Assembly: GCA_021735105.1 (NCBI GenBank)
Contig: JAIPHS010000001.1
Location: 5,484-69,483, forward strand
From: Candidatus Omnitrophota bacterium
Lineage (GTDB): Bacteria; Omnitrophota; Gorgyraeia; Duberdicusellales; 4484-171
Reading direction: 5' to 3'
DNA length: 64,000 nucleotides
A program made the translations under genes and the position numbers. Of the stretch, positions 1-63,811 are shown one piece after another (the stretch's first letter is position 1; the number at the start of each line of letters is the position of its first letter). Under the pieces are notes generated by a model that worked only from the letters and a program-made list of their open reading frames with translations, was not told where the DNA came from and did no database searches.

Positions 1-57
1 TAAAATATATCCAGGCAAAACGATTAAAATACCTATTCTAAAATAAGACCTTTTTGT

Positions 58-3690: not shown

Positions 3691-4122
3691 ATGATTTATG
3701 AAAAACGAGAAATATCTTCTCTAGAAAAAAAGGCCAAAAAAACTGTATCTAAGAGTTTTTTGCCCGAAGATATTGATGTCTCAATTTTACAAACCATTTC
3801 TTATAAATACCCAAAAAAGATAATTGATGTTCAACTAAGCTCACAAGAGTTTAGTAGTGTTTGTCCTTATTCCGATCTTCCTGATTTTGCTTGTTTGACA
3901 ATACGCTATACCCCTTATAAAAAATTGATTGAATTAAAATCTTTGAAATATTATATTTATGCTTTTCATAATGTAAAAATTTACAATGAGCACGTAGTAA
4001 ATAAGATTATGAAAGACTTAAAAAAAATACTAAATCCTCGCAAAATAGAAGTAACCGCAGAATTTAGTTGCCGAGGCGGTATAATCAATAAAGTTGCAGC
4101 TACTTTTAAGAAAAAGCATTAA
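3691..4122 (+). CDS. queF: NADPH-dependent 7-cyano-7-deazaguanine (preQ0) reductase QueF, type I
   Basis: 143 aa; catalytic Cys context 'SVCPYSDLPDFA' and QueF motif 'ELKSLKYYIYAF'; alignable by eye to B. subtilis YkvM. Confidence 0.8.
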   Translation: MIYEKREISSLEKKAKKTVSKSFLPEDIDVSILQTISYKYPKKIIDVQLSSQEFSSVCPYSDLPDFACLTIRYTPYKKLIELKSLKYYIYAFHNVKIYNEHVVNKIMKDLKKILNPRKIEVTAEFSCRGGIINKVAATFKKKH

Positions 4123-4142: not shown

Positions 4143-5075
4143 ATGCTTAAAAAAGCTATAATTTTATTTTTGTTATTTTTTAGCTCTTGTGCTCCTTTTA
4201 TAAATAAAGATAAATTTATTGTGTCCGGCACCTATCTAGAAGTACAATCGCCAGATGAACATGCTGCTAAAGTTGTCTACCAAGAATTTAGGCGTCTAGA
4301 TTTAATTTTTAATAGTTACCAAAAGAATTCAGAAAGTTATAAATTAAATAAGAGTCCAAATAAAGCATTTAAGGCATCAAGTGAGTTGGTTGAGGTTATA
4401 AAGGCAGCTAAAAAATATTATAAATTAAGCGAAGGCGCTTTTGATATAACAAAGGCTAAATTATATAGTTTTTGGAAAAAGTGGGGCAAAGAGAGTCAAA
4501 CCAGTAAATTTCCTAGCTTTGAGGAGATAGCGCAGCTACAAGATGCAGGGGATATAGATAGCATTGAGATTGATGAGGCAAAAAAAACTATCAGAATTAA
4601 TGACAATCAGTTAACTATTGATTTTTCTGGGATTGCTAAAGGTTACATAGTTGACAAGGCCGTTCTAAAGTTAAAAAAGTCAGGCATTGAGAGTGCCTTG
4701 GTTAATGCCGGTGGAGAGGTGTATTGTTTAGGTAAAAACAAAAAAAAGCCTTGGAGAGTTGGGATAAAAGGACCAAGTGGGATTATTAAAATCATAGAAG
4801 TAGTTGATGCTGCTGTTGCAACTTCTGGTAATTATGAGCAATTTTATGAAAAATCCGGAAAGAGCTATTCTCATATTATTGATCCGCGGACTGGATATCC
4901 AGTTAATAAAAAATTTTTAGGAGTAACAGTTATTGCAAAAAAATGTATAAAAGCAGATGTATTAGCAACAACTTTTTTTATAAATGGAAAAGAGTTTGCA
5001 AAAAAAATTATAAAGGATGACCCGTCAATTACTGCTTATTTTGTAACTGAAGCTGAAATAGAAAAGATAAACTAA
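4143..5075 (+). CDS. apbE: ApbE-like FAD:protein FMN transferase lipoprotein
   Basis: 310 aa; signal peptide with lipobox-like 'FFSSC'; size and overall composition consistent with ApbE family. Assignment by family resemblance only. Confidence 0.55.
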   Translation: MLKKAIILFLLFFSSCAPFINKDKFIVSGTYLEVQSPDEHAAKVVYQEFRRLDLIFNSYQKNSESYKLNKSPNKAFKASSELVEVIKAAKKYYKLSEGAFDITKAKLYSFWKKWGKESQTSKFPSFEEIAQLQDAGDIDSIEIDEAKKTIRINDNQLTIDFSGIAKGYIVDKAVLKLKKSGIESALVNAGGEVYCLGKNKKKPWRVGIKGPSGIIKIIEVVDAAVATSGNYEQFYEKSGKSYSHIIDPRTGYPVNKKFLGVTVIAKKCIKADVLATTFFINGKEFAKKIIKDDPSITAYFVTEAEIEKIN

Positions 5076-5102: not shown

Positions 5103-5891
5103 ATGAAAAAAAACAATATAAAAATTAAGCAAGTTATGGCCGGAGAAAAGAAGATATCGATAGTTACTTGTTATGATTATTCTTTTGCCCGGATTTTAAA
5201 TCAAAGCGTTATTGATATTATTTTAGTGGGAGATTCTTTGGCTAATGTTTCATTGGGCCTTGCTGACACAAAAGAAATAACTATTGAGGAGATGTTGAAC
5301 CATACCAAGGCAGTCTCTAGAGGCGCTCCTGATAAAATTATTATTGCAGATATTCCTTATTCAGGATGCCAGAAAAAGTCTAGTCAACCCCTAGAAATTG
5401 CAAAAAGGCTTATCCAAGCTGGGGCTGATGGGATTAAAATAGAGTGGTTCAAGGGCTGTAAAAAAGTGATTAGAAAATTGGTAGAAAAAAATATTTGGGT
5501 TATGGGCCATATTGGGCTTACGCCTCAGACTGTGCATCTTTTGGGTGGTTATAAAGTTCAAGGTAAAGATAAAGAATCGGCTGATAAGTTAATTAAGCAA
5601 GCTAAGCTATTACAAGGCTTAGGTGTCTCTAGTATTGTTTTGGAATGCATAAAAAAAGATATCGCTAAACAAATTACTGAGAGTATAGATATTCCTACTA
5701 TTGGTATTGGGGCTGGGAAACATTGTGGCGGCCAAGTTTTAGTCTTATATGATTTATTGGGTATGTATCCTAATAAAATGAAATTTGTAAGAACTTTTTC
5801 TAATTTATCTTATCAAATAAAAGGTGCAATAAATTTATTTGATCAAGCCATAAAAAAGGAAACTTTTCCTTCAAACCAGGAAAGCTTTTAA
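5103..5891 (+). CDS. panB: 3-methyl-2-oxobutanoate hydroxymethyltransferase (ketopantoate hydroxymethyltransferase)
   Basis: 262 aa; 'ISIVTCYDYSFARIL', 'GADGIKIE', 'HIGLTPQ' typical PanB segments. Confidence 0.8.
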   Translation: MKKNNIKIKQVMAGEKKISIVTCYDYSFARILNQSVIDIILVGDSLANVSLGLADTKEITIEEMLNHTKAVSRGAPDKIIIADIPYSGCQKKSSQPLEIAKRLIQAGADGIKIEWFKGCKKVIRKLVEKNIWVMGHIGLTPQTVHLLGGYKVQGKDKESADKLIKQAKLLQGLGVSSIVLECIKKDIAKQITESIDIPTIGIGAGKHCGGQVLVLYDLLGMYPNKMKFVRTFSNLSYQIKGAINLFDQAIKKETFPSNQESF

Positions 5892-5903
5892 AATATATTT
5901 TAA

Positions 5904-5932
5904 TTGACTGGTTTAGCCACTTCTGCTAATAT
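5904..5932 (+). promoter_or_regulatory. sigma70-type promoter upstream of purB (TTGACT-17-TAATAT)
   Basis: TTGACT at 5904-5909, 17-nt spacer, TAATAT at 5927-5932; followed by an AGGAGG RBS and the TTG start of purB at 5967. Confidence 0.5.
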
Positions 5933-5966
5933 TGTATTCCTACAAACATTTATATAGGAGGCAGGT

Positions 5967-7259
5967 TTGATCAAAAGATATACCCCGGAAAAAATAGGTA
6001 AAATTTGGCAAGAAGATGAGAAGTTTAGGCGTTTTTTAAAGATTGAGGCTTTACTTTGTGAAGCTCTAGAGAAACAAAAGAAGATACCGAAAGGAACTAG
6101 TAAAAAGTTTTCTAAAGTAAAAATTTCAACTAGTAAAATAAAGGACATTGAAGCAAAAACCTGTCACGATATTGTAGCTTTCCTAAAACATATATCAGGT
6201 CAAATTGGCCCAGCTGCACAATATCTTCATCGGGGCCTTACTTCTTCAGATCTTCTAGATACAACTTTAGCCTGGCAAATAAAAGATGCTTGTAAAATTA
6301 TTTTGTCTGATTTAGATAAAGTAATAACTGTAGCTAAAAAGAAAGCAATAAAGTATAAAGATACAATCTGCATGGCTCGGACCCATGGGATGCATGCTGA
6401 AATTTATAGTTTTGGGCTAAAATTTCTTTATTTATATAACGATTTAATGGAGGAAAGAACGAAATTATCTGAAGCCCTTGATTATATAGTTTGCGGAAAA
6501 ATCTCTGGAGCTGTAGGAACATTTGCTTATTTTAGCCCAAATACCGAAGACTATATTTGTAAAAAGATAGGCATAAATAGAGCAAAAATTTCTACGCAAA
6601 TTGTTTCAAGAGAAAGGTTTGCATATTTTTTATCTTTACTTTCACTGATTGGATCAACTCTTGAAAGATTTGCTACCGAAATCAGGCATCTTCATCGGAC
6701 AGAAGTCAATGAAGCTAAAGAACCTTTTTATAAAGGACAAAAAGGTTCATCAGCTATGCCGCATAAACAAAATCCTATCATTTGTGAAAGAATTTGCGGC
6801 TTAGCACGTTTGCTTCGTTCTAATTCATTTGCTGCCTCGGAAAATATAAATCTTTGGCATGAACGAGATATTTCACATTCTTCAGTAGAAAGGGTTATAA
6901 TCCCGGATTCAACAATAATTATAGATTATATACTGCAAAAATTTAAAGAAGTTATATCCAGAATAAATGTGAGCTCTAAAGGAATGCTTAGAAATATTGA
7001 GCTTAACAGAGGGATAGTTTATTCTCAAAAAGTATTAATTGAACTTATGAAAAAAGGTTTATCTAGAATGCAGGCATATGATCTAGTTCAAGAAATTTCT
7101 TTAAGGGTAATTAATAATAGTTCACATTTTAAAGAAGAAGTGTTTAAAAACAACAAGATAAAAGATATCTTGGATAAAAAGATTCTAAATGACATATTTG
7201 ACCCGTACAATTATCTAGCAAATATAGACAAAATTTATAAAAGGTTTAATTTAAGTTAA
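5967..7259 (+). CDS. purB: adenylosuccinate lyase
   Basis: 430 aa, TTG start; fumarate-lyase signature 'GSSAMPHKQNP'. Confidence 0.85.
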   Translation: MIKRYTPEKIGKIWQEDEKFRRFLKIEALLCEALEKQKKIPKGTSKKFSKVKISTSKIKDIEAKTCHDIVAFLKHISGQIGPAAQYLHRGLTSSDLLDTTLAWQIKDACKIILSDLDKVITVAKKKAIKYKDTICMARTHGMHAEIYSFGLKFLYLYNDLMEERTKLSEALDYIVCGKISGAVGTFAYFSPNTEDYICKKIGINRAKISTQIVSRERFAYFLSLLSLIGSTLERFATEIRHLHRTEVNEAKEPFYKGQKGSSAMPHKQNPIICERICGLARLLRSNSFAASENINLWHERDISHSSVERVIIPDSTIIIDYILQKFKEVISRINVSSKGMLRNIELNRGIVYSQKVLIELMKKGLSRMQAYDLVQEISLRVINNSSHFKEEVFKNNKIKDILDKKILNDIFDPYNYLANIDKIYKRFNLS

Positions 7260-12395: not shown

Positions 12396-12522
12396 CTATC
12401 ACTGCCTGCACTTAGTACAGGCAGGGGTAAATTGAGAAGGCACTTCGCCGAGTAATTCGGCTCAGTGCCATTGAAAATTAAGGTATTCGTTAAATAGTTT
12501 CATTTTCAATGGAGGAGAATTC
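12396..12522 (+). promoter_or_regulatory. GC-rich structured intergenic leader between purF and purM (three stem-loops)
   Basis: Hairpin ctgcctg/caggcag (12404-12426). Nested hairpin ggcact...tcgccgagtaattcggctc...agtgcc (about 12440-12470). 11-bp stem ccattgaaaat/attttcaatgg (about 12469-12510) ending at the GGAGGAG RBS of purM. Confidence 0.4.
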
Positions 12523-16408: not shown

Positions 16409-16852
16409 ATGAGGATAGCTTTTGGTTGTGATCACCGTGGCTTTAAATTAAAAAATACTTTAATAAACTATTTAGAAGGTAAAGGCCATAAAATTATTGA
16501 TTTCGGTACATTTTCTAAGGATTCATGTGATTATCCTGATTATATTTATCCAGCTGCGTCTGCAGTAGCTAATAAAAAAGCAGATAGAGCTGTTGTTATT
16601 TGTTTTACTGGAATTGGAAGCTGTATTTTGGCGAATAAAATAAAGGGAATAAGGGCGGCTTTAGCTTACAATATAAAAAGCGCTAAACTTTCCCGTTGTC
16701 ATAATGATAGTAATGTTTTGGTGCTGGCTGCAGATTTGGTGAAGCCGGATTATGCTAAAAAAATGGCTTTAAGTTGGCTTAAAGAAGGTTTTGAAGCAGG
16801 AAGGCATAGCCGAAGATTGCGTAAGATACGAAAAGCCGAGGAATCTCAATAA
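16409..16852 (+). CDS. rpiB: ribose-5-phosphate isomerase B
   Basis: 147 aa; 'RIAFGCDHRGFKLK', 'CFTGIGSCILANK' RpiB/LacAB family. Confidence 0.8.
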   Translation: MRIAFGCDHRGFKLKNTLINYLEGKGHKIIDFGTFSKDSCDYPDYIYPAASAVANKKADRAVVICFTGIGSCILANKIKGIRAALAYNIKSAKLSRCHNDSNVLVLAADLVKPDYAKKMALSWLKEGFEAGRHSRRLRKIRKAEESQ

Positions 16853-16953
16853 TCAACGAATGCATATAATCATCGAATGTACTAATCTTTACGAATATAC
16901 GAATGATATTATAAATATTCGTACATTCGTAATTGATTCGTATATTCGTTGAT
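16853..16953 (+). repeat. intergenic palindromic element, copy A (TACGAAT/ATTCGTA heptad array)
   Basis: 'tcaacgaat...tacgaatatacgaatg atattataaat attcgtacattcgtaattgattcgtatattcgttga': 4 heptads on each arm in inverted orientation; starts at the rpiB stop codon; family shared with 26882-26966 and 63724-63811. Confidence 0.7.
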
Positions 16954-16978
16954 AACAATCAGTTATGAGGAGGCTTAA

Positions 16979-24680: not shown

Positions 24681-24889
24681 TGGCACACCCGAAACGAAAA
24701 CACTCCCATGCACGAACTCATAAAAAAAGAACACATCAAAAAATACATTCTCCCTCGCTGGTAAAATGTAGTCAGTGTAAGAAATTTAAACCTAAAAGCA
24801 TGGTCTGTCCTTTTTGCGGTTATTACAAAAATAAAGAAATCATAAAAATAGAGCCAAAAGAAAATAAAAAGAAAAAAAGACAAGGTTAA
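24680..24889 (+). CDS. rpmF: 50S ribosomal protein L32 with lysine-rich C-terminal extension
   Basis: 69 aa; 'MAHPKRKHSHARTHKKRTH...CPFCGYYK' L32 zinc ribbon; heads the rpmF-plsX-fabHDG-acpP-fabF cluster. Confidence 0.8.
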   Translation: MAHPKRKHSHARTHKKRTHQKIHSPSLVKCSQCKKFKPKSMVCPFCGYYKNKEIIKIEPKENKKKKRQG

Positions 24890-24892
24890 TTT

Positions 24893-26849: not shown

Positions 26850-26881
26850 ATGGTGAGCGGTTAATTGGTGAGTAGTGAGTA

Positions 26882-26966
26882 ATCAACGAATTTACTAATC
26901 TGTACGAATATACGAATTTAATAAGTTCCTATTCGCAAATTCGTAATTAATTCGTACATTCATTGA
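26882..26966 (+). repeat. intergenic palindromic element, copy B (TACGAAT/ATTCGTA family)
   Basis: 'aatcaacgaatttactaatctgtacgaatatacgaat...attcgcaaattcgtaattaattcgtacattcattgat'; bracketed by outer inverted repeats ggttaattgg (26860-26869) / ccaattaacc (26971-26980). Confidence 0.7.
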
Positions 26967-26970
26967 TGGT

Positions 26971-27010
26971 AACCAATTAACCAATTGACCAATTAACTAA
27001 TTAACTAATT
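26971..27010 (+). repeat. 8-nt tandem repeat array (CCAATTAA-like x5) in fabH-fabD spacer
   Basis: 'ccaattaa ccaattga ccaattaa ctaattaa ctaattta' directly before the fabD RBS and start. Confidence 0.65.
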
Positions 27011-27011
27011 T

Positions 27012-27923
27012 ATGGGTAAGAAAGCGATAATATTTCCGGGGCAAGGATCTCAATATCCTCAGATGGGTTTGAGTTTATACCAAAACTTTCAAGAAGCAAA
27101 GAAAGTTTTTGATCTAGTTGAACGGATTTCCGGAATTAAAATTTCAGAAGCTATATTTAGCGGAGATTCCTCTCAGCTTAAAGATACAGCTATTCAACAA
27201 TTGGCTATTTTAGCAGTTAGTTTAGCAGCTTATGAGCTGTCAAAGCCTCATTTGGGGGATGTTGAATTTGTTTTAGGGTTAAGCTTGGGTGAATATAGTT
27301 GTCTTTATGCCGGAGGAGTTCTTTGCTTAGAAGATCTTATTTTATTGGTTAAAGCAAGGGGCCAAGCTATGCAGAAAGCAGCTAAGGTTAACCCTTCTTC
27401 TATGTTTGCCGTTATTGGAGCCAATCGGGGTGATTTAGAGCCAAAACAAAGAGATTTAGATTTTTATATTTCTAACATGAATGCTCCTTCTCAAATTGTT
27501 ATTTCTACAAAAAAAAAGAATAAAAACGAATTAAAAAATAAATTAGAAAAAGAAGGGTTAAGGGTAATAGAGCTTAAAGTTTCTGGAGGTTTTCACTCTC
27601 CTTTTATGGAACCAGCCAGAGAAGAACTTAAAAAAGTTGTTGCCGATTTTGAATTTTCTGACGCACATATTCCTATTATAAGCAATGTAACCGCCAGTCA
27701 AGATATTAAGTCTGAAAAAATAAAAGAAAATTTACTTAAGCAATTAGTCAGTCCTGTGTTATGGATGGATTCAATAAAATATTTATCAAAAAAAGGTATA
27801 AATAATTTCTATGAAGTTGGCCCTTCAAAGGTATTAAAAGGGCTCTTAAGGAAGATAGACAGAGATTTAAAAGTTATCAATATCGAGAAGAAGGAAGATT
27901 TAGAGAAAATAATTGATAATTGA
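27012..27923 (+). CDS. fabD: malonyl-CoA:ACP transacylase
   Basis: 303 aa; 'FPGQGSQ', active Ser 'GLSLGEYS', 'GGFHSP'. Confidence 0.85.
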   Translation: MGKKAIIFPGQGSQYPQMGLSLYQNFQEAKKVFDLVERISGIKISEAIFSGDSSQLKDTAIQQLAILAVSLAAYELSKPHLGDVEFVLGLSLGEYSCLYAGGVLCLEDLILLVKARGQAMQKAAKVNPSSMFAVIGANRGDLEPKQRDLDFYISNMNAPSQIVISTKKKNKNELKNKLEKEGLRVIELKVSGGFHSPFMEPAREELKKVVADFEFSDAHIPIISNVTASQDIKSEKIKENLLKQLVSPVLWMDSIKYLSKKGINNFYEVGPSKVLKGLLRKIDRDLKVINIEKKEDLEKIIDN

Positions 27924-28002
27924 TAATTGATAATTGATAATTGAGAAAAAAATTATTGAAATAGAATAAATTTTAATTATAAGTTATAAATTATCAATTA
28001 TG
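27908..28002 (+). repeat. heptamer tandem repeat (GATAATT x about 5) at fabD 3' end plus complementary arm, forming an intergenic palindrome
   Basis: gataatt units 27915-27942 span the fabD stop. 'aaattatcaattatg' at 27988-28002 is the reverse complement of 'ataattgataat', giving a long imperfect hairpin across the fabD-fabG spacer. Confidence 0.6.
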
Positions 28003-28753: not shown

Positions 28754-28766
28754 AAAAAGGAGGTCT

Positions 28767-29000
28767 TTGATGGCGATTGAAGAGAAAGTAAAGGAAATAA
28801 TTTCAGAACAGCTTGGTGTCAAGAAAGAAGAGATAAAACCGGAAAGTTCTTTCATTGATGATTTAGGCGCGGATTCTTTGGATACAGTAGAAGTTGTTAT
28901 GGCATTGGAAGAAGAGTTTGGCATAGAAATACCTGATGAAGATGCGGAAAAAATTACAAAAGTCGGAGAAGCCATTAAATATATCGAAGAAAAGAAATAA
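28767..29000 (+). CDS. acpP: acyl carrier protein
   Basis: 77 aa; phosphopantetheine site '[10 protein letters not shown]'. Confidence 0.9.
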
Positions 29001-29015
29001 CAAATTTAATTATAG

Positions 29016-34278: not shown

Positions 34279-34282
34279 CAGA

Positions 34283-34444
34283 GGGGACGGTCCTTATCCT
34301 TGTAAGTCTTTTATCTATAATTACTTATGAAAAAAATAAAATTACTATAATTCAATAAAGATAAAACGCTGTGTGTTTATTTAGAAAATATTATTTTTAT
34401 AACTTGTTGAGGAGTAATTAATTAAAAAGGTAAGGACTGTCCCC
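34283..34444 (+). repeat. AT-rich spacer bracketed by a 16-17 bp long-range inverted repeat (ggggacggtccttatcc / ggtaaggactgtcccc)
   Basis: Left arm 34283-34299, right arm 34429-34444. They can pair as 16 bp with two G-U wobbles. The right arm contains the AAGGA RBS of truA (ATG 34447). Confidence 0.5.
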
Positions 34445-34446
34445 GT

Positions 34447-43497: not shown

Positions 43498-45150
43498 GTG
43501 AAAAAAAAATGTTTTTCTCGATTTACCGTAATATATCTACTATTTGTCTTTTTGTCCATAATCCTTTTTGCTAAAATCATATATCTTCAAGTTTATCGAG
43601 AAGATTTTTTTGATCAGCTTGCCCAGAAACAGCATTATGGACTTTTTCCAATACAAAGCAAGAGAGGTGAGATTATTGACCGTAATCAAGATATTCTTGC
43701 CAAAAGTATTCATTTTTATTCGGTTTTTGCCGATCCATTTTTTATCAAAAATAAAAATAATTATGCTAGCCTTCTTTCTGAAAAATTAAATATTTCAGAA
43801 AAAAATTTAATAGCTAAATTAAATAAAAAAAACCGTCGTTTTATTTGGGTAAAAAGAAAGATAGACTGGAAACAAAAAAAAGATATAGAAAGTCTTAATT
43901 TAACTGGAATTGGATTTATAAGAGAAAACCAAAGGTTTTATCCTGAAAAAAGTTTATTTCCTTCTGTCTTGGGGCTTGTAGGTATAGACAATAATGGTTT
44001 AGAGGGAATTGAATTTTATTATGATAATTATTTGCGGGGCAAAAAGGGATGGGCTAGGGTTTTAAGAGATTCGGCTTCAGAGCATTTGATTTTGACCCCT
44101 TCTTTGATAGAATTACAACAAGGGGCTGACTTGGTACTTACCTTAGATACTAGAATTCAATATTGGGTAAAACAATATCTAAAAGAAACAATTGAAAAAT
44201 ATAGAGCAAAAAATGGTTCGGTAGTGGTGATGAATGCCCAAAATGGTGAAATATTAGCTTTAGCAAATTCTAATAGTTCTGACCTAGAAAAAGACAAATT
44301 TTATTTTTCTAAAAATAATGCAGTTACAGATATGTTTGAGCCTGGTTCGGTTTTTAAGATTGTAACTTTAGTTGCTGCATTATCAGAAAAAATGCTTTTT
44401 GGTAAAATTGATTGTGAACAAGGTAAATTCAAAATTCCCGGGACTGTATTAAACGATTACCGTCCTTATGGAAAACTTTCTTTCCAGGAAGTTTTTTATA
44501 AATCAAGCAATATAGGCGTTGCTAAAATAGCTACAACCGTTGGTTACAAAAAAATATATAATTATATAGAAAAAATGGGTTTTGGCCAAAAAACCGGCAT
44601 AGATTTTCCCGGTGAAACTAAAGGAAGGCTTATCCAGCTAGATAAATGGTCAAAAACTGCAAGATATATTATTCCTATTGGCCAAGGTATAGGAGTGAAT
44701 TTACTGCAATTGGTGAGGGCCTTTGCTGTAATAGTAAACGGTGGAGATTTAGTAACTCCTCATTTAGGTAAAAAATTATGCGCTAAAGGTTTTTGCCGAG
44801 ACATTAAGCATGATTTAAAAAAAGATATTGTATCGGCTGAAACAGCTAATAAAGCTAAAAAAGTCTTAGTTAAAGTTGTTAGCCAAGGAACCGGCAGAAG
44901 AGCTAAAGTTGACGGTGAATTAGTTGGCGGCAAAACCGGAACTGCCCAAAAATTTGATTCAAATTTAGGCAGATATTCTCCCAGTAAATATAGGGCTAAT
45001 TTTATTGGTTTTATTGACAGCGCAAAAAAGCCAATTGTAATTGGAGTAACTATCGATGAACCCAAAAAATCACATTTTGGGGGAGCAGTAGCAGCTCCTT
45101 TATTTAAAAAAATTGCTGAAAAAATTATTAGTTATGAATTATTCGAATAA
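43498..45150 (+). CDS. ftsI: peptidoglycan D,D-transpeptidase FtsI (class B PBP)
   Basis: 550 aa; N-terminal TM, transpeptidase motifs 'SVFK' (SxxK), 'SSN', 'KTGT'. Confidence 0.8.
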   Translation: MKKKCFSRFTVIYLLFVFLSIILFAKIIYLQVYREDFFDQLAQKQHYGLFPIQSKRGEIIDRNQDILAKSIHFYSVFADPFFIKNKNNYASLLSEKLNISEKNLIAKLNKKNRRFIWVKRKIDWKQKKDIESLNLTGIGFIRENQRFYPEKSLFPSVLGLVGIDNNGLEGIEFYYDNYLRGKKGWARVLRDSASEHLILTPSLIELQQGADLVLTLDTRIQYWVKQYLKETIEKYRAKNGSVVVMNAQNGEILALANSNSSDLEKDKFYFSKNNAVTDMFEPGSVFKIVTLVAALSEKMLFGKIDCEQGKFKIPGTVLNDYRPYGKLSFQEVFYKSSNIGVAKIATTVGYKKIYNYIEKMGFGQKTGIDFPGETKGRLIQLDKWSKTARYIIPIGQGIGVNLLQLVRAFAVIVNGGDLVTPHLGKKLCAKGFCRDIKHDLKKDIVSAETANKAKKVLVKVVSQGTGRRAKVDGELVGGKTGTAQKFDSNLGRYSPSKYRANFIGFIDSAKKPIVIGVTIDEPKKSHFGGAVAAPLFKKIAEKIISYELFE

Positions 45151-63679: not shown

Positions 63680-63680
63680 A

Positions 63681-63720
63681 TAAGGATAAAGGATAAAGGT
63701 TAAAGGTTAAAGGATAAAGA
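63681..63720 (+). repeat. tandem repeat (AAGGATAAAGG / AAGGTTAAAGG units) directly after the acyltransferase stop codon
   Basis: 'taaggataaaggataaaggttaaaggttaaaggataaaga' immediately precedes repeat copy C. Confidence 0.6.
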
Positions 63721-63723
63721 GTT

Positions 63724-63811
63724 AATCAACGAATTTACTAATCTTTACGAATTTACGAATGTTTACATATTTTTATTCGTATATTCGTAATTGATTCGTA
63801 TGTTCGTAGAT
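63724..63811 (+). repeat. intergenic palindromic element, copy C (TACGAAT/ATTCGTA family)
   Basis: 'atcaacgaatttactaatctttacgaatttacgaatg...attcgtatattcgtaattgattcgtatgttcgtagat'. The 5' arm is near-identical to copy B and the 3' arm near-identical to copy A. Confidence 0.7.

Follow-up and report, generated by a model that had tools for sequence, protein, structure and literature searches.

Correia/NEMIS sequences of Neisseria and ERIC/IRU sequences of enterobacteria are miniature inverted-repeat transposable elements (MITEs) that form hairpins when transcribed, with the duplexes of Correia elements being cut by RNase III. Short tandemly repeated repetitive (STRR) sequences of cyanobacteria are contiguous heptamer arrays, while the four-helix-bundle proteins of the S23p family are known mainly from the intervening sequences of rRNA genes. 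This work concerns a palindromic element built of spaced TACGAAT units, of which three copies (A, B and C) lie in a 64,000-nucleotide stretch, hereafter the window, of a Candidatus Omnitrophota bacterium (assembly GCA_021735105.1, contig JAIPHS010000001.1, positions 5,484 to 69,483). The family is dispersed, palindromic, insertion-polymorphic and MITE-like, and on balance its copies are probably small, non-coding mobile palindromes, the gene-less derivatives of mini-elements encoding a GxxExxY protein. It matches no Rfam family, and in kind it resembles MITEs and intervening sequences.

Arrays of similarly short units have been reported in other settings. The intervening sequence of the Coxiella 23S rRNA gene is a selfish insert that bears an S23p gene, is cut by RNase III, and has tandem heptamers (GACAGAT) at its 5' end (PMC4990558). 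Geobacter metallireducens carries dozens of paired sites per genome, on opposite strands and each of three to five tandem hepta- or octanucleotides, that were annotated as 'global regulator binding sites' (PMC2700814). Intergenic TAACTGA arrays occur in Beggiatoaceae, cyanobacteria and Bacteroidetes, a patchy spread across phyla that suggests transfer with no evident vehicle (PMC4679880), and, among the long simple repeats of prokaryotes, heptanucleotides have been counted as the most common (Mrazek 2007 as cited in PMC4679880).

The window has a GC content of 32%, very short spacers, and nearly all of its genes on the forward strand. The copies of the element within these spacers are 85-105 bp in length and non-coding, as the arms and a loop of 12-14 nt leave no room for an open reading frame (ORF; Table 1). 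Read 5' to 3', their anatomy is ATCAACGAAT-N-TACTAAT-CTN-TACGAAT-N-TACGAAT, the loop, and ATTCGTA-N-ATTCGTA-ATTR-ATTCGTA-N-ATTCGTTGAT, with approximately four TACGAAT-type units per arm, and with the arms pairing across approximately 30 positions between the termini TCAACGAAT...ATTCGTTGA. The second unit of the 5' arm, TACTAAT, stands opposite ATTCGTA, giving a conserved T-C mismatch. The 5' arms of the three copies are 92-95% identical and the 3' arms 76-80%, that of copy B being the most decayed (ATTCGCA, ATTCATTGAT). Copy A has an additional 17-nt copy of its outer unit, and copy C is found unchanged in an independent record (JAIPHB010000001.1, L138; GCA_021735385.1).

The 7-mer TACGAAT occurs 16 times in the window, compared to 5.8 +/- 2.4 times in dinucleotide-preserving shuffles, none of which reached 16 in 100 attempts, and 14 of the 16 occurrences are inside the three elements. 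A role as a DNA-uptake sequence was set aside, as the rest of the window has just two copies of the 7-mer, fewer than expected, and hence no enrichment beyond the palindromes. When one mismatch is permitted, the window contains exactly these three palindromic clusters, the sole further match (45133-45148) comprising three overlapping one-mismatch matches. The initial annotation of this DNA had picked out the same three copies, and all three are present at essentially the positions it reported. Its account of the arms as arrays of TACGAAT heptads was right as to the 7-mer unit, but the units are not contiguous, starting 8, 10-11 and 8 nt apart; similarly, its placing of each copy directly after a stop codon describes copy A, which abuts the rpiB stop (0 nt), while copies B and C begin 32 and 45 nt beyond the preceding stop.

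Table 1. TACGAAT elements in the window, the repeats that adjoin them, and the loci at which the family lies in ribosomal-protein operons.
Feature	Position	Strand	Remarks
Copy A	16853-16955	none	103-nt insertion in the rpiB/glyA spacer; TCAACGAAT...ATTCGTTGA plus the putatively duplicated TAA
Copy A, left arm	16869-16904
Copy A, loop	16905-16916
Copy A, right arm	16917-16953
Copy A, additional outer-unit copy	16851-16867		17 nt
rpiB stop codon TAA	16850-16852	+	apparent insertion target of copy A; repeated at 16953-16955
Copy B	26882-26967	none	fabH/fabD spacer
Copy B, left arm	26882-26917
Copy B, loop	26918-26930
Copy B, right arm	26931-26967
Outer left arm around copy B	26852-26879	none	GGTGAGC GGTTAATTGGTGAG TAGTGAG; separate palindrome of the TAACCAAT/ATTGGTTA type
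Outer right arm around copy B	26968-27011	none	(TAACCAAT/TAACTAAT) x5, extending to the fabD ATG; Tandem Repeats Finder (TRF) period 8, 5.1 copies
Copy C	63725-63811	none	LpxL-like acyltransferase/GT2 gene spacer
Copy C, left arm	63725-63760
Copy C, loop	63761-63774
Copy C, right arm	63775-63811
Direct array (AAGGATA/AAGGTTA) x6	63680-63721	+	immediately 5' of copy C, outside the element; TRF
Ribosomal-protein alpha operon loci			L052, L059, L060, L071, L075, L079, L106, L113
Ribosomal-protein spc operon loci			L020, L031, L036, L049, L097, L100, L116

The comparison of related genomes demonstrates how these elements are distributed by insertion. Firstly, the rpiB-glyA junction of the window consists of TAA, 103 nt, CAATCAGTTATGAGGAGGCTTAA and ATG in succession, compared to TAA, CAATCAGTTATGAGGAGGCTTAA and ATG in the relative L136, in which RpiB is 88% identical and the downstream spacer matches that of the window at 23 of 23 nt; the site is also empty in L135 and L137. 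The last three inserted bases of copy A are TAA, the same as the rpiB stop codon, making a target duplication at this copy probable; with TAA as the apparent target, the contact of copy A with a stop codon would be explained. At L043 the copy is flanked on either side by TTA, and the flanks of other Omnitrophota copies are T-N-A-like, matching at one or two of the three positions. Secondly, copy B is absent from the fabH-fabD spacer of four syntenic relatives with 80-90% identical FabD (no trace in L121-L123, the left arm only in L120), and copy C is absent from the LpxL-GT2 spacer of three (L139-L141, LpxL 81-90% identical). Thirdly, copy A has a 93% identical counterpart, inclusive of the loop and extra unit, in a different Omnitrophota genome (L004, 38% GC), where it lies behind an unrelated 634-aa gene and between flanks that cannot be aligned. 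Fourthly, an AUK068-type Omnitrophota subfamily of approximately 130 nt retains the same spacers, loop and flanking TCTAAT units in numerous contexts, frequently at the ends of contigs. Insertion into short intergenic spacers involves the whole element, in either orientation, and copies are gained and lost between close relatives.

These observations make it very improbable that the palindromes are simple-sequence repeats generated in place, by replication slippage and palindrome correction, with no transposition, an explanation already disfavoured. Such a process would be in keeping with the other 7-8-nt arrays (GATAATT, TAACCAAT, AAGGATA, CCGAAAT, GGACGAY) that fill the spacers of the window's clade and turn over between relatives, with an expanded run of 18 units at L089, and with the predominance of heptanucleotides among long simple repeats of prokaryotes (Mrazek 2007 as cited in PMC4679880). 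However, two genomes have, after unrelated genes, 105-nt units that are 93% identical and agree in their loop and asymmetric mismatch, which slippage cannot bring about; nor can it yield a non-tandem 7/10-11/8 spacing common across phyla, or a clean 103-nt gap relative to L136. The run at L089 (31-170), at a contig end of a Bacteroidia metagenome-assembled genome (MAG), comprises ATTCGTA/GTTCGTA units on one strand, and shows that arrays can grow by slippage too.

The family extends far beyond the window. Species-representative genomes scanned with the pattern TACGAATNTACGAATN{10,35}ATTCGTAATT contained at least 119 loci, all of them in MAGs, and a metagenome scan found 11 loci, representing 11 further contexts. 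By their record titles, the 119 loci listed belong to Patescibacteria lineages (57), Bacteroidota (34), Omnitrophota (15), 'Gammaproteobacteria' (9), Bdellovibrionales (2), Methylomirabilis (1) and Planctomycetaceae (1), some of which labels may be binning errors, as every listed locus is from a MAG; their GC contents span 29-60%, and JACQWN01, JAGGUG01 and JACPMF01 are multi-copy genomes. The same pattern had no match in 2.9 million viral contigs, and the consensus element had none by blastn in 72,556 plasmids. Rfam 15 gave no match to the whole window at gathering thresholds, and in E-value mode the elements of eight loci matched just plant microRNA hairpin models, below threshold. A full-text literature search with doubled-unit strings found no paper, and literature on 'repetitive extragenic palindromic' sequences and Patescibacteria held nothing relevant. 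The initial annotation's suggestion of a dispersed palindrome family with no named relative is therefore upheld by the further loci, the clean insertion of copy A relative to an empty site, and the lack of a matching Rfam family; rather than being confined to three regions no better than shuffled AT-rich DNA, the element has many further copies, and its folds beat those of shuffled sequence.

That annotation left the family between two types of repeat, of which MITEs provide the better fit. Like Correia and ERIC sequences, the elements are non-coding, approximately 100-150 bp, and bounded by long terminal inverted repeats, with many intergenic copies that are often in operons, insertion polymorphism between relatives, and a transcript predicted to fold to a long duplex. 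Unlike them, each TACGAAT arm comprises four spaced copies of one 7-mer, rather than a single transposase footprint, with the loop and spacers free to vary; there is no known DDE transposase partner, the candidate being a PD-(D/E)XK protein of approximately 125 aa; an apparent target duplication is seen in some copies only; and the family is distributed across several phyla, not within a single genus. Repetitive extragenic palindromic (REP) sequences, along with the bacterial interspersed mosaic elements (BIMEs) and REP doublets forming hairpins (REPINs), are likewise extragenic palindromes that follow stop codons and occur in operons, in which inverted pairs of units form a larger hairpin. 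Many TACGAAT-family variants similarly begin CTAC... and end ...GTAG, and the mobiliser to be expected would be a single-copy trans-acting enzyme in both cases. However, the TACGAAT arms are AT-rich direct arrays of 7-mers that are not self-complementary, with no GC-rich hairpin in each arm; the window's subfamily ends GTTGA(T), rather than GTAG; and no gene for a Y1 transposase of the REP-associated tyrosine transposase (RAYT) type was seen among the top Pfam families of 131 downstream neighbours.

Of 149 elements, 126 have two callable flanking genes, which are co-directional in 102 cases, divergent in 15 and convergent in nine. Orientation relative to the genes (44:32) was not significantly biased, and the median position was 12 nt 3' of a stop codon and 22 nt 5' of the next start. 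All copies are between protein-coding genes, none being in a 23S rRNA helix, and the downstream neighbours (n=131) are diverse housekeeping genes from 158 Pfam families, the commonest of which include no transposase. The proposal in the initial annotation of a terminator or attenuator draws on a hairpin situated directly 3' of a stop codon, but it has not survived this analysis, and is barely credible as an intrinsic mechanism. A terminator and promoter scan made no call at copies A and B, where the stem is AT-rich and there is no U-tract, the tails of the copies (GATAACAATC, GATGGTAACC, GATATTGGTA) are not terminator-like, and the hairpin is equally stable on both strands. Furthermore, the copies lie within long co-directional strings of genes, with no excess between convergent genes.

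The shared architecture of the 149 elements indicates which of their properties are maintained. The modal structure is 4+4 units, the left arm always being of TACGAAT and the right arm always of ATTCGTA, with start-to-start spacings of 7 (192 cases), 8 (311) and 10-11 nt (213). Loop lengths lie between -2 and 25 nt, rising to 366 nt in a gene-bearing copy, and 30 elements are loop-free perfect palindromes (TACGAATTCGTA). From outer to inner unit, the order 7-(9..11)-8 is dominant in Patescibacteria and also found in one of two Omnitrophota arms, the second being 8-10-8 with TACTAAT as unit 2. Of the units, 825 are exact; position 4 is the most variable, and C3, A5 and A6 are near-fixed, while spacers and loops vary even between copies within a single genome. 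In 20 aligned Omnitrophota copies, the T-C mismatch was inherited by all 20, and no compensatory change was found in 29 predicted pairs (covariation term +0.15). Variants at position 4 were compensated on the opposite arm in seven of 98 unit pairs, the usual case being the mismatch of TACTAAT with ATTCGTA, and single-nucleotide spacers pair at the level expected by chance. On this evidence from aligned sequences, the conserved feature is the units and their spacing, not the helix, which points to unit-by-unit recognition by a protein; the protein-binding sites put forward in the initial annotation would fit this pattern.

The same results bear on whether the element could be an intercistronic RNA hairpin under host selection, either as an RNase III site or as a barrier to 3'-exonucleases, that tunes how stable adjacent cistrons are relative to one another, or how well they are translated, a capacity of REP and Correia sequences. 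The predicted folds are indeed strong: those of copies A-C beat shuffles on both strands (z -3.5 to -6.1; copy A -32.9 kcal/mol, z -5.7), and 81 elements between co-directional genes have a mean of -29.6 kcal/mol. The typical location, just after a stop codon, just before a start, and mostly within co-directional strings, would suit such a role, as would an excess of copies in ribosomal-protein and pilus operons, and a different, GC-rich hairpin in the fabH-fabD spacer of relatives, as if a hairpin were always wanted there. Yet the pairs do not covary, the spacer nucleotides do not pair beyond chance, and sense and antisense folding of the 81 elements did not differ (p = 0.48); copies are not retained at orthologous sites in close relatives, with L121 lacking any hairpin; and a structural role leaves the same 7-mer across phyla unexplained. 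This explanation is consequently unlikely. The hairpin raised in the initial annotation does form in silico, and would be expected in any transcript, but selection for it has no support here.

Recognition at the level of DNA is instead the premise of a second host-centred explanation, an array of double-stranded operators for a regulator or nucleoid protein, analogous to the Geobacter sites or to 7-bp arrays bound by ribbon-helix-helix or Fur-family proteins. Individually conserved units at fixed spacing with free spacers, a symmetric arrangement independent of orientation, and the 30 loop-free palindromes could all be accommodated by such a function, and the architecture has a published precedent (PMC2700814). 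The modal 4+4 units on opposite strands around a variable loop match the Geobacter architecture, although the units there are GTTGCTYN, TCTCCGTS and MTYCTGA, and these were read as operators, with neither mobility nor a link to mini-genes being reported. Nevertheless, sites are not conserved before the same genes in close relatives, the neighbouring genes have no common theme, there is no excess between divergent genes, where promoters lie, and copy A is demonstrably an insertion; an operator array is accordingly doubtful, and we would give it little credence. Fur or Zur sites in particular were considered and set aside: the Zur half-site of Bacillus, TCGTAAT, overlaps the register of ATTCGTAAT, and GATAATT arrays are nearby, but the retained unit ATTCGTA at 8-nt spacing loses the Zur-like register, and the sites are not kept ahead of any particular gene set. 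The TAACTGA and STRR repeats share with the TACGAAT family 7-nt intergenic units close to start codons, some of them in ribosomal-protein operons, and a patchy distribution across phyla; unlike the non-contiguous TACGAAT palindromes, which have no orientation bias, they are contiguous direct repeats biased towards the downstream gene.

A candidate for a protein that may recognise the units emerges from gene-bearing forms of the element. Left and right arms lying 0.3-4 kb apart were searched for and found once, in a Patescibacteria pilus operon (L102), where a 134-aa ORF encoding a GxxExxY protein (PF13366 PDDEXK_3, 7e-17; TIGR04256, 2e-15) is located between 5+5 units (1217-1259 and 1625-1666). 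Compared with gene-less palindromes located 2-3 kb away (3700-3764 and 4377-4436), the arms of this copy are identical over 45 nt on the left and approximately 90% identical on the right, a pattern that a full-length element should show with its deletion derivatives. When all ORFs of all loci were searched by profile, one further GxxExxY gene was found, at L018, between 4+4 TACGAAT-like units. A GxxExxY gene on a Treponema plasmid has 25-nt inverted repeats with no unit arrays; no GxxExxY relatives were found in viral contigs, and no solved structure matched by sequence. The function of PF13366 is listed as unknown, and its phylogeny is marked by multiple transfers (PMC3424549).

We therefore favour, as the more probable course of events, that the window's copies derive from parent mini-elements in which the same arms would bracket a gene of approximately 125 aa from the GxxExxY family of PD-(D/E)XK nucleases. 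The 7-mers may be the sites read by the mobilising protein, for which the GxxExxY nuclease is the first candidate; such reading would explain the conservation of the units across phyla despite the drift of spacers and loops. As the copies sit inside co-directional gene strings, they would also be transcribed, and by analogy their RNA could form an imperfect duplex of approximately 30 bp. RNase III could cut this duplex, as it does in rRNA intervening sequences and Correia elements, although by that analogy cleavage would affect the flanking mRNAs incidentally, rather than being the reason for the element's existence.

Several observations weigh against this origin. Approximately 14 of the 119 listed loci are in ribosomal-protein alpha and spc operons (Table 1), the spacer differing between lineages, and in L102 a single type IV pilus operon (pilM-pilO-pilB) has four elements in its spacers as well as the gene-bearing copy upstream; an element that is purely selfish would not ordinarily show such an excess, which could reflect a host function. 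The fabH-fabD and LpxL-GT2 spacers differ wholly between relatives, such that they do not represent simple filled and empty sites. The TAA at copy A has a chance level of approximately 4% in AT-rich DNA, and a blind test for 3-nt target duplications found five matches in 98 elements, compared to three expected; a general test for duplications of 2-4 nt found no excess either, the matches at shifts of 2-3 being artefacts of palindromic dinucleotides. Only two gene-bearing copies were seen, and there is no GxxExxY gene in the window or approximately 200 kb of its relatives, meaning the link rests on other phyla. We know of no nuclease or transposase activity for PF13366, and events may have run in the opposite direction, with a gene inserting into an existing palindrome.

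A second orphan family is associated with arrays of the same kind. In the LpxL-GT2 spacer of the relative L141, an S23p four-helix-bundle gene (5838-6376; PF05635, TIGR02436) is located between two copies of GGTTAATTGGTGAG and 12-13 of (TTAACCAA), the latter at a position equivalent to the outer right arm around copy B. Hence copy B is, judging by its flanks, nested within a second element built of other units, as the same outer units bracket the S23p gene in L141. When this locus was considered alongside ten plasmid homologues (L143-L152) from cultured Nostoc, Calothrix, Stanieria, Pseudanabaena, Picosynechococcus, Riemerella and Gemmatirosa, all 11 S23p mini-genes had arrays of period 7-8 on both sides. 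These arrays were reverse complements in nine cases, direct in L148 and unrelated in L143, and CTGCCYT-type units recur by the S23p genes of Nostoc PCC 7120, Stanieria and Gemmatirosa. On two cyanobacterial plasmids, a CRISPR-Cas operon harbours the S23p mini-gene and its arrays, the neighbouring genes being cas6 and cas4 in L148 and cas10 and cmr3 in L149. The parallel with the 23S rRNA intervening sequences is that of a small selfish insert with ends that pair into a stem, of S23p genes outside rRNA bracketed by inverted 7-8-nt arrays, and of one such S23p-type array pair surrounding copy B. Unlike those inserts, the TACGAAT copies are in mRNA spacers, those in the window contain no ORF, and the relatives that do contain one carry GxxExxY, rather than S23p.

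It is tempting to generalise, with the caution due to a conjecture, that palindromes of 7-8-nt arrays are the cis-acting ends of widespread, undescribed mini mobile elements, the sole cargo of which is a GxxExxY PD-(D/E)XK nuclease or an S23p protein, and that the TACGAAT family is a GxxExxY-linked lineage that moved between Patescibacteria, Omnitrophota, Bacteroidota and others. If true, this would unify rRNA intervening sequences, the heptamer arrays of cyanobacteria, the 'global regulator sites' of Geobacter and the TACGAAT elements, and would make the GxxExxY protein a transposase or homing nuclease of a new, unit-reading kind. Should the narrower proposal of gene-less derivatives hold, a mobile repeat family would be common to several bacterial phyla that are among the least understood and are represented by MAGs only, with its copies breaking assemblies at contig ends and affecting the reconstruction of these genomes. 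It would also provide a first testable role for two very common orphan families, PF13366/GxxExxY and S23p, and one explanation for the abundance of 7-nt repeats in prokaryotic intergenic DNA. The occurrence of one 7-mer across phyla, with no phage or plasmid carrier detected, raises a question about gene flow among ultra-small bacteria.

Other repeats share the spacers of the window and its relatives. Each unit of the AAGGATA/AAGGTTA array beside copy C contains a Shine-Dalgarno-like AAGG, with TAA formed across the junctions, and the array is found with no TACGAAT element before fabD in L120 and L123, and after the LpxL-like gene in L140. The fabD-fabG spacer has four to five GATAATT units (27915-27944), then AATTATN units (27975-28002), which are 82-85% complementary and make up another type of unit palindrome; in the relatives, this spacer has CCGAAAT/ATTTCGG-type arrays (L120-L122), or is just 28 nt (L123). 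A TTAACTAA array is present in the glyA-dCMP deaminase spacer of L123 and L135. The fabH-fabD spacer is filled by a GC-rich, REP-like hairpin headed by GTAG, GTAGGGGCAGGCC...GCCTGCCCTA, in L122 (9946-10000), L123 (9937-10000) and L120 (9924-10054), and a similar hairpin, CTGCCTGC...GCAGGCAGGGG, is in the window's spacer at 12396-12522 (approximately 12400-12430). The asd-truA spacer (34279-34446) holds a 168-nt, MITE-like insert with 16-nt inverted repeats, GAGGGGACGGTCCTTA and TAAGGACTGTCCCCGT, that is unrelated to the TACGAAT element; L120 has the whole insert and L122 half of it, and L121 and L123 lack it. No tRNA or tmRNA genes were found in the window, and at 24681-24892 and 28754-29015 there are small genes missed by the 80-aa ORF list, which synteny with L120-L123 suggests are rpmF (L32), preceded by yceD, and acpP.

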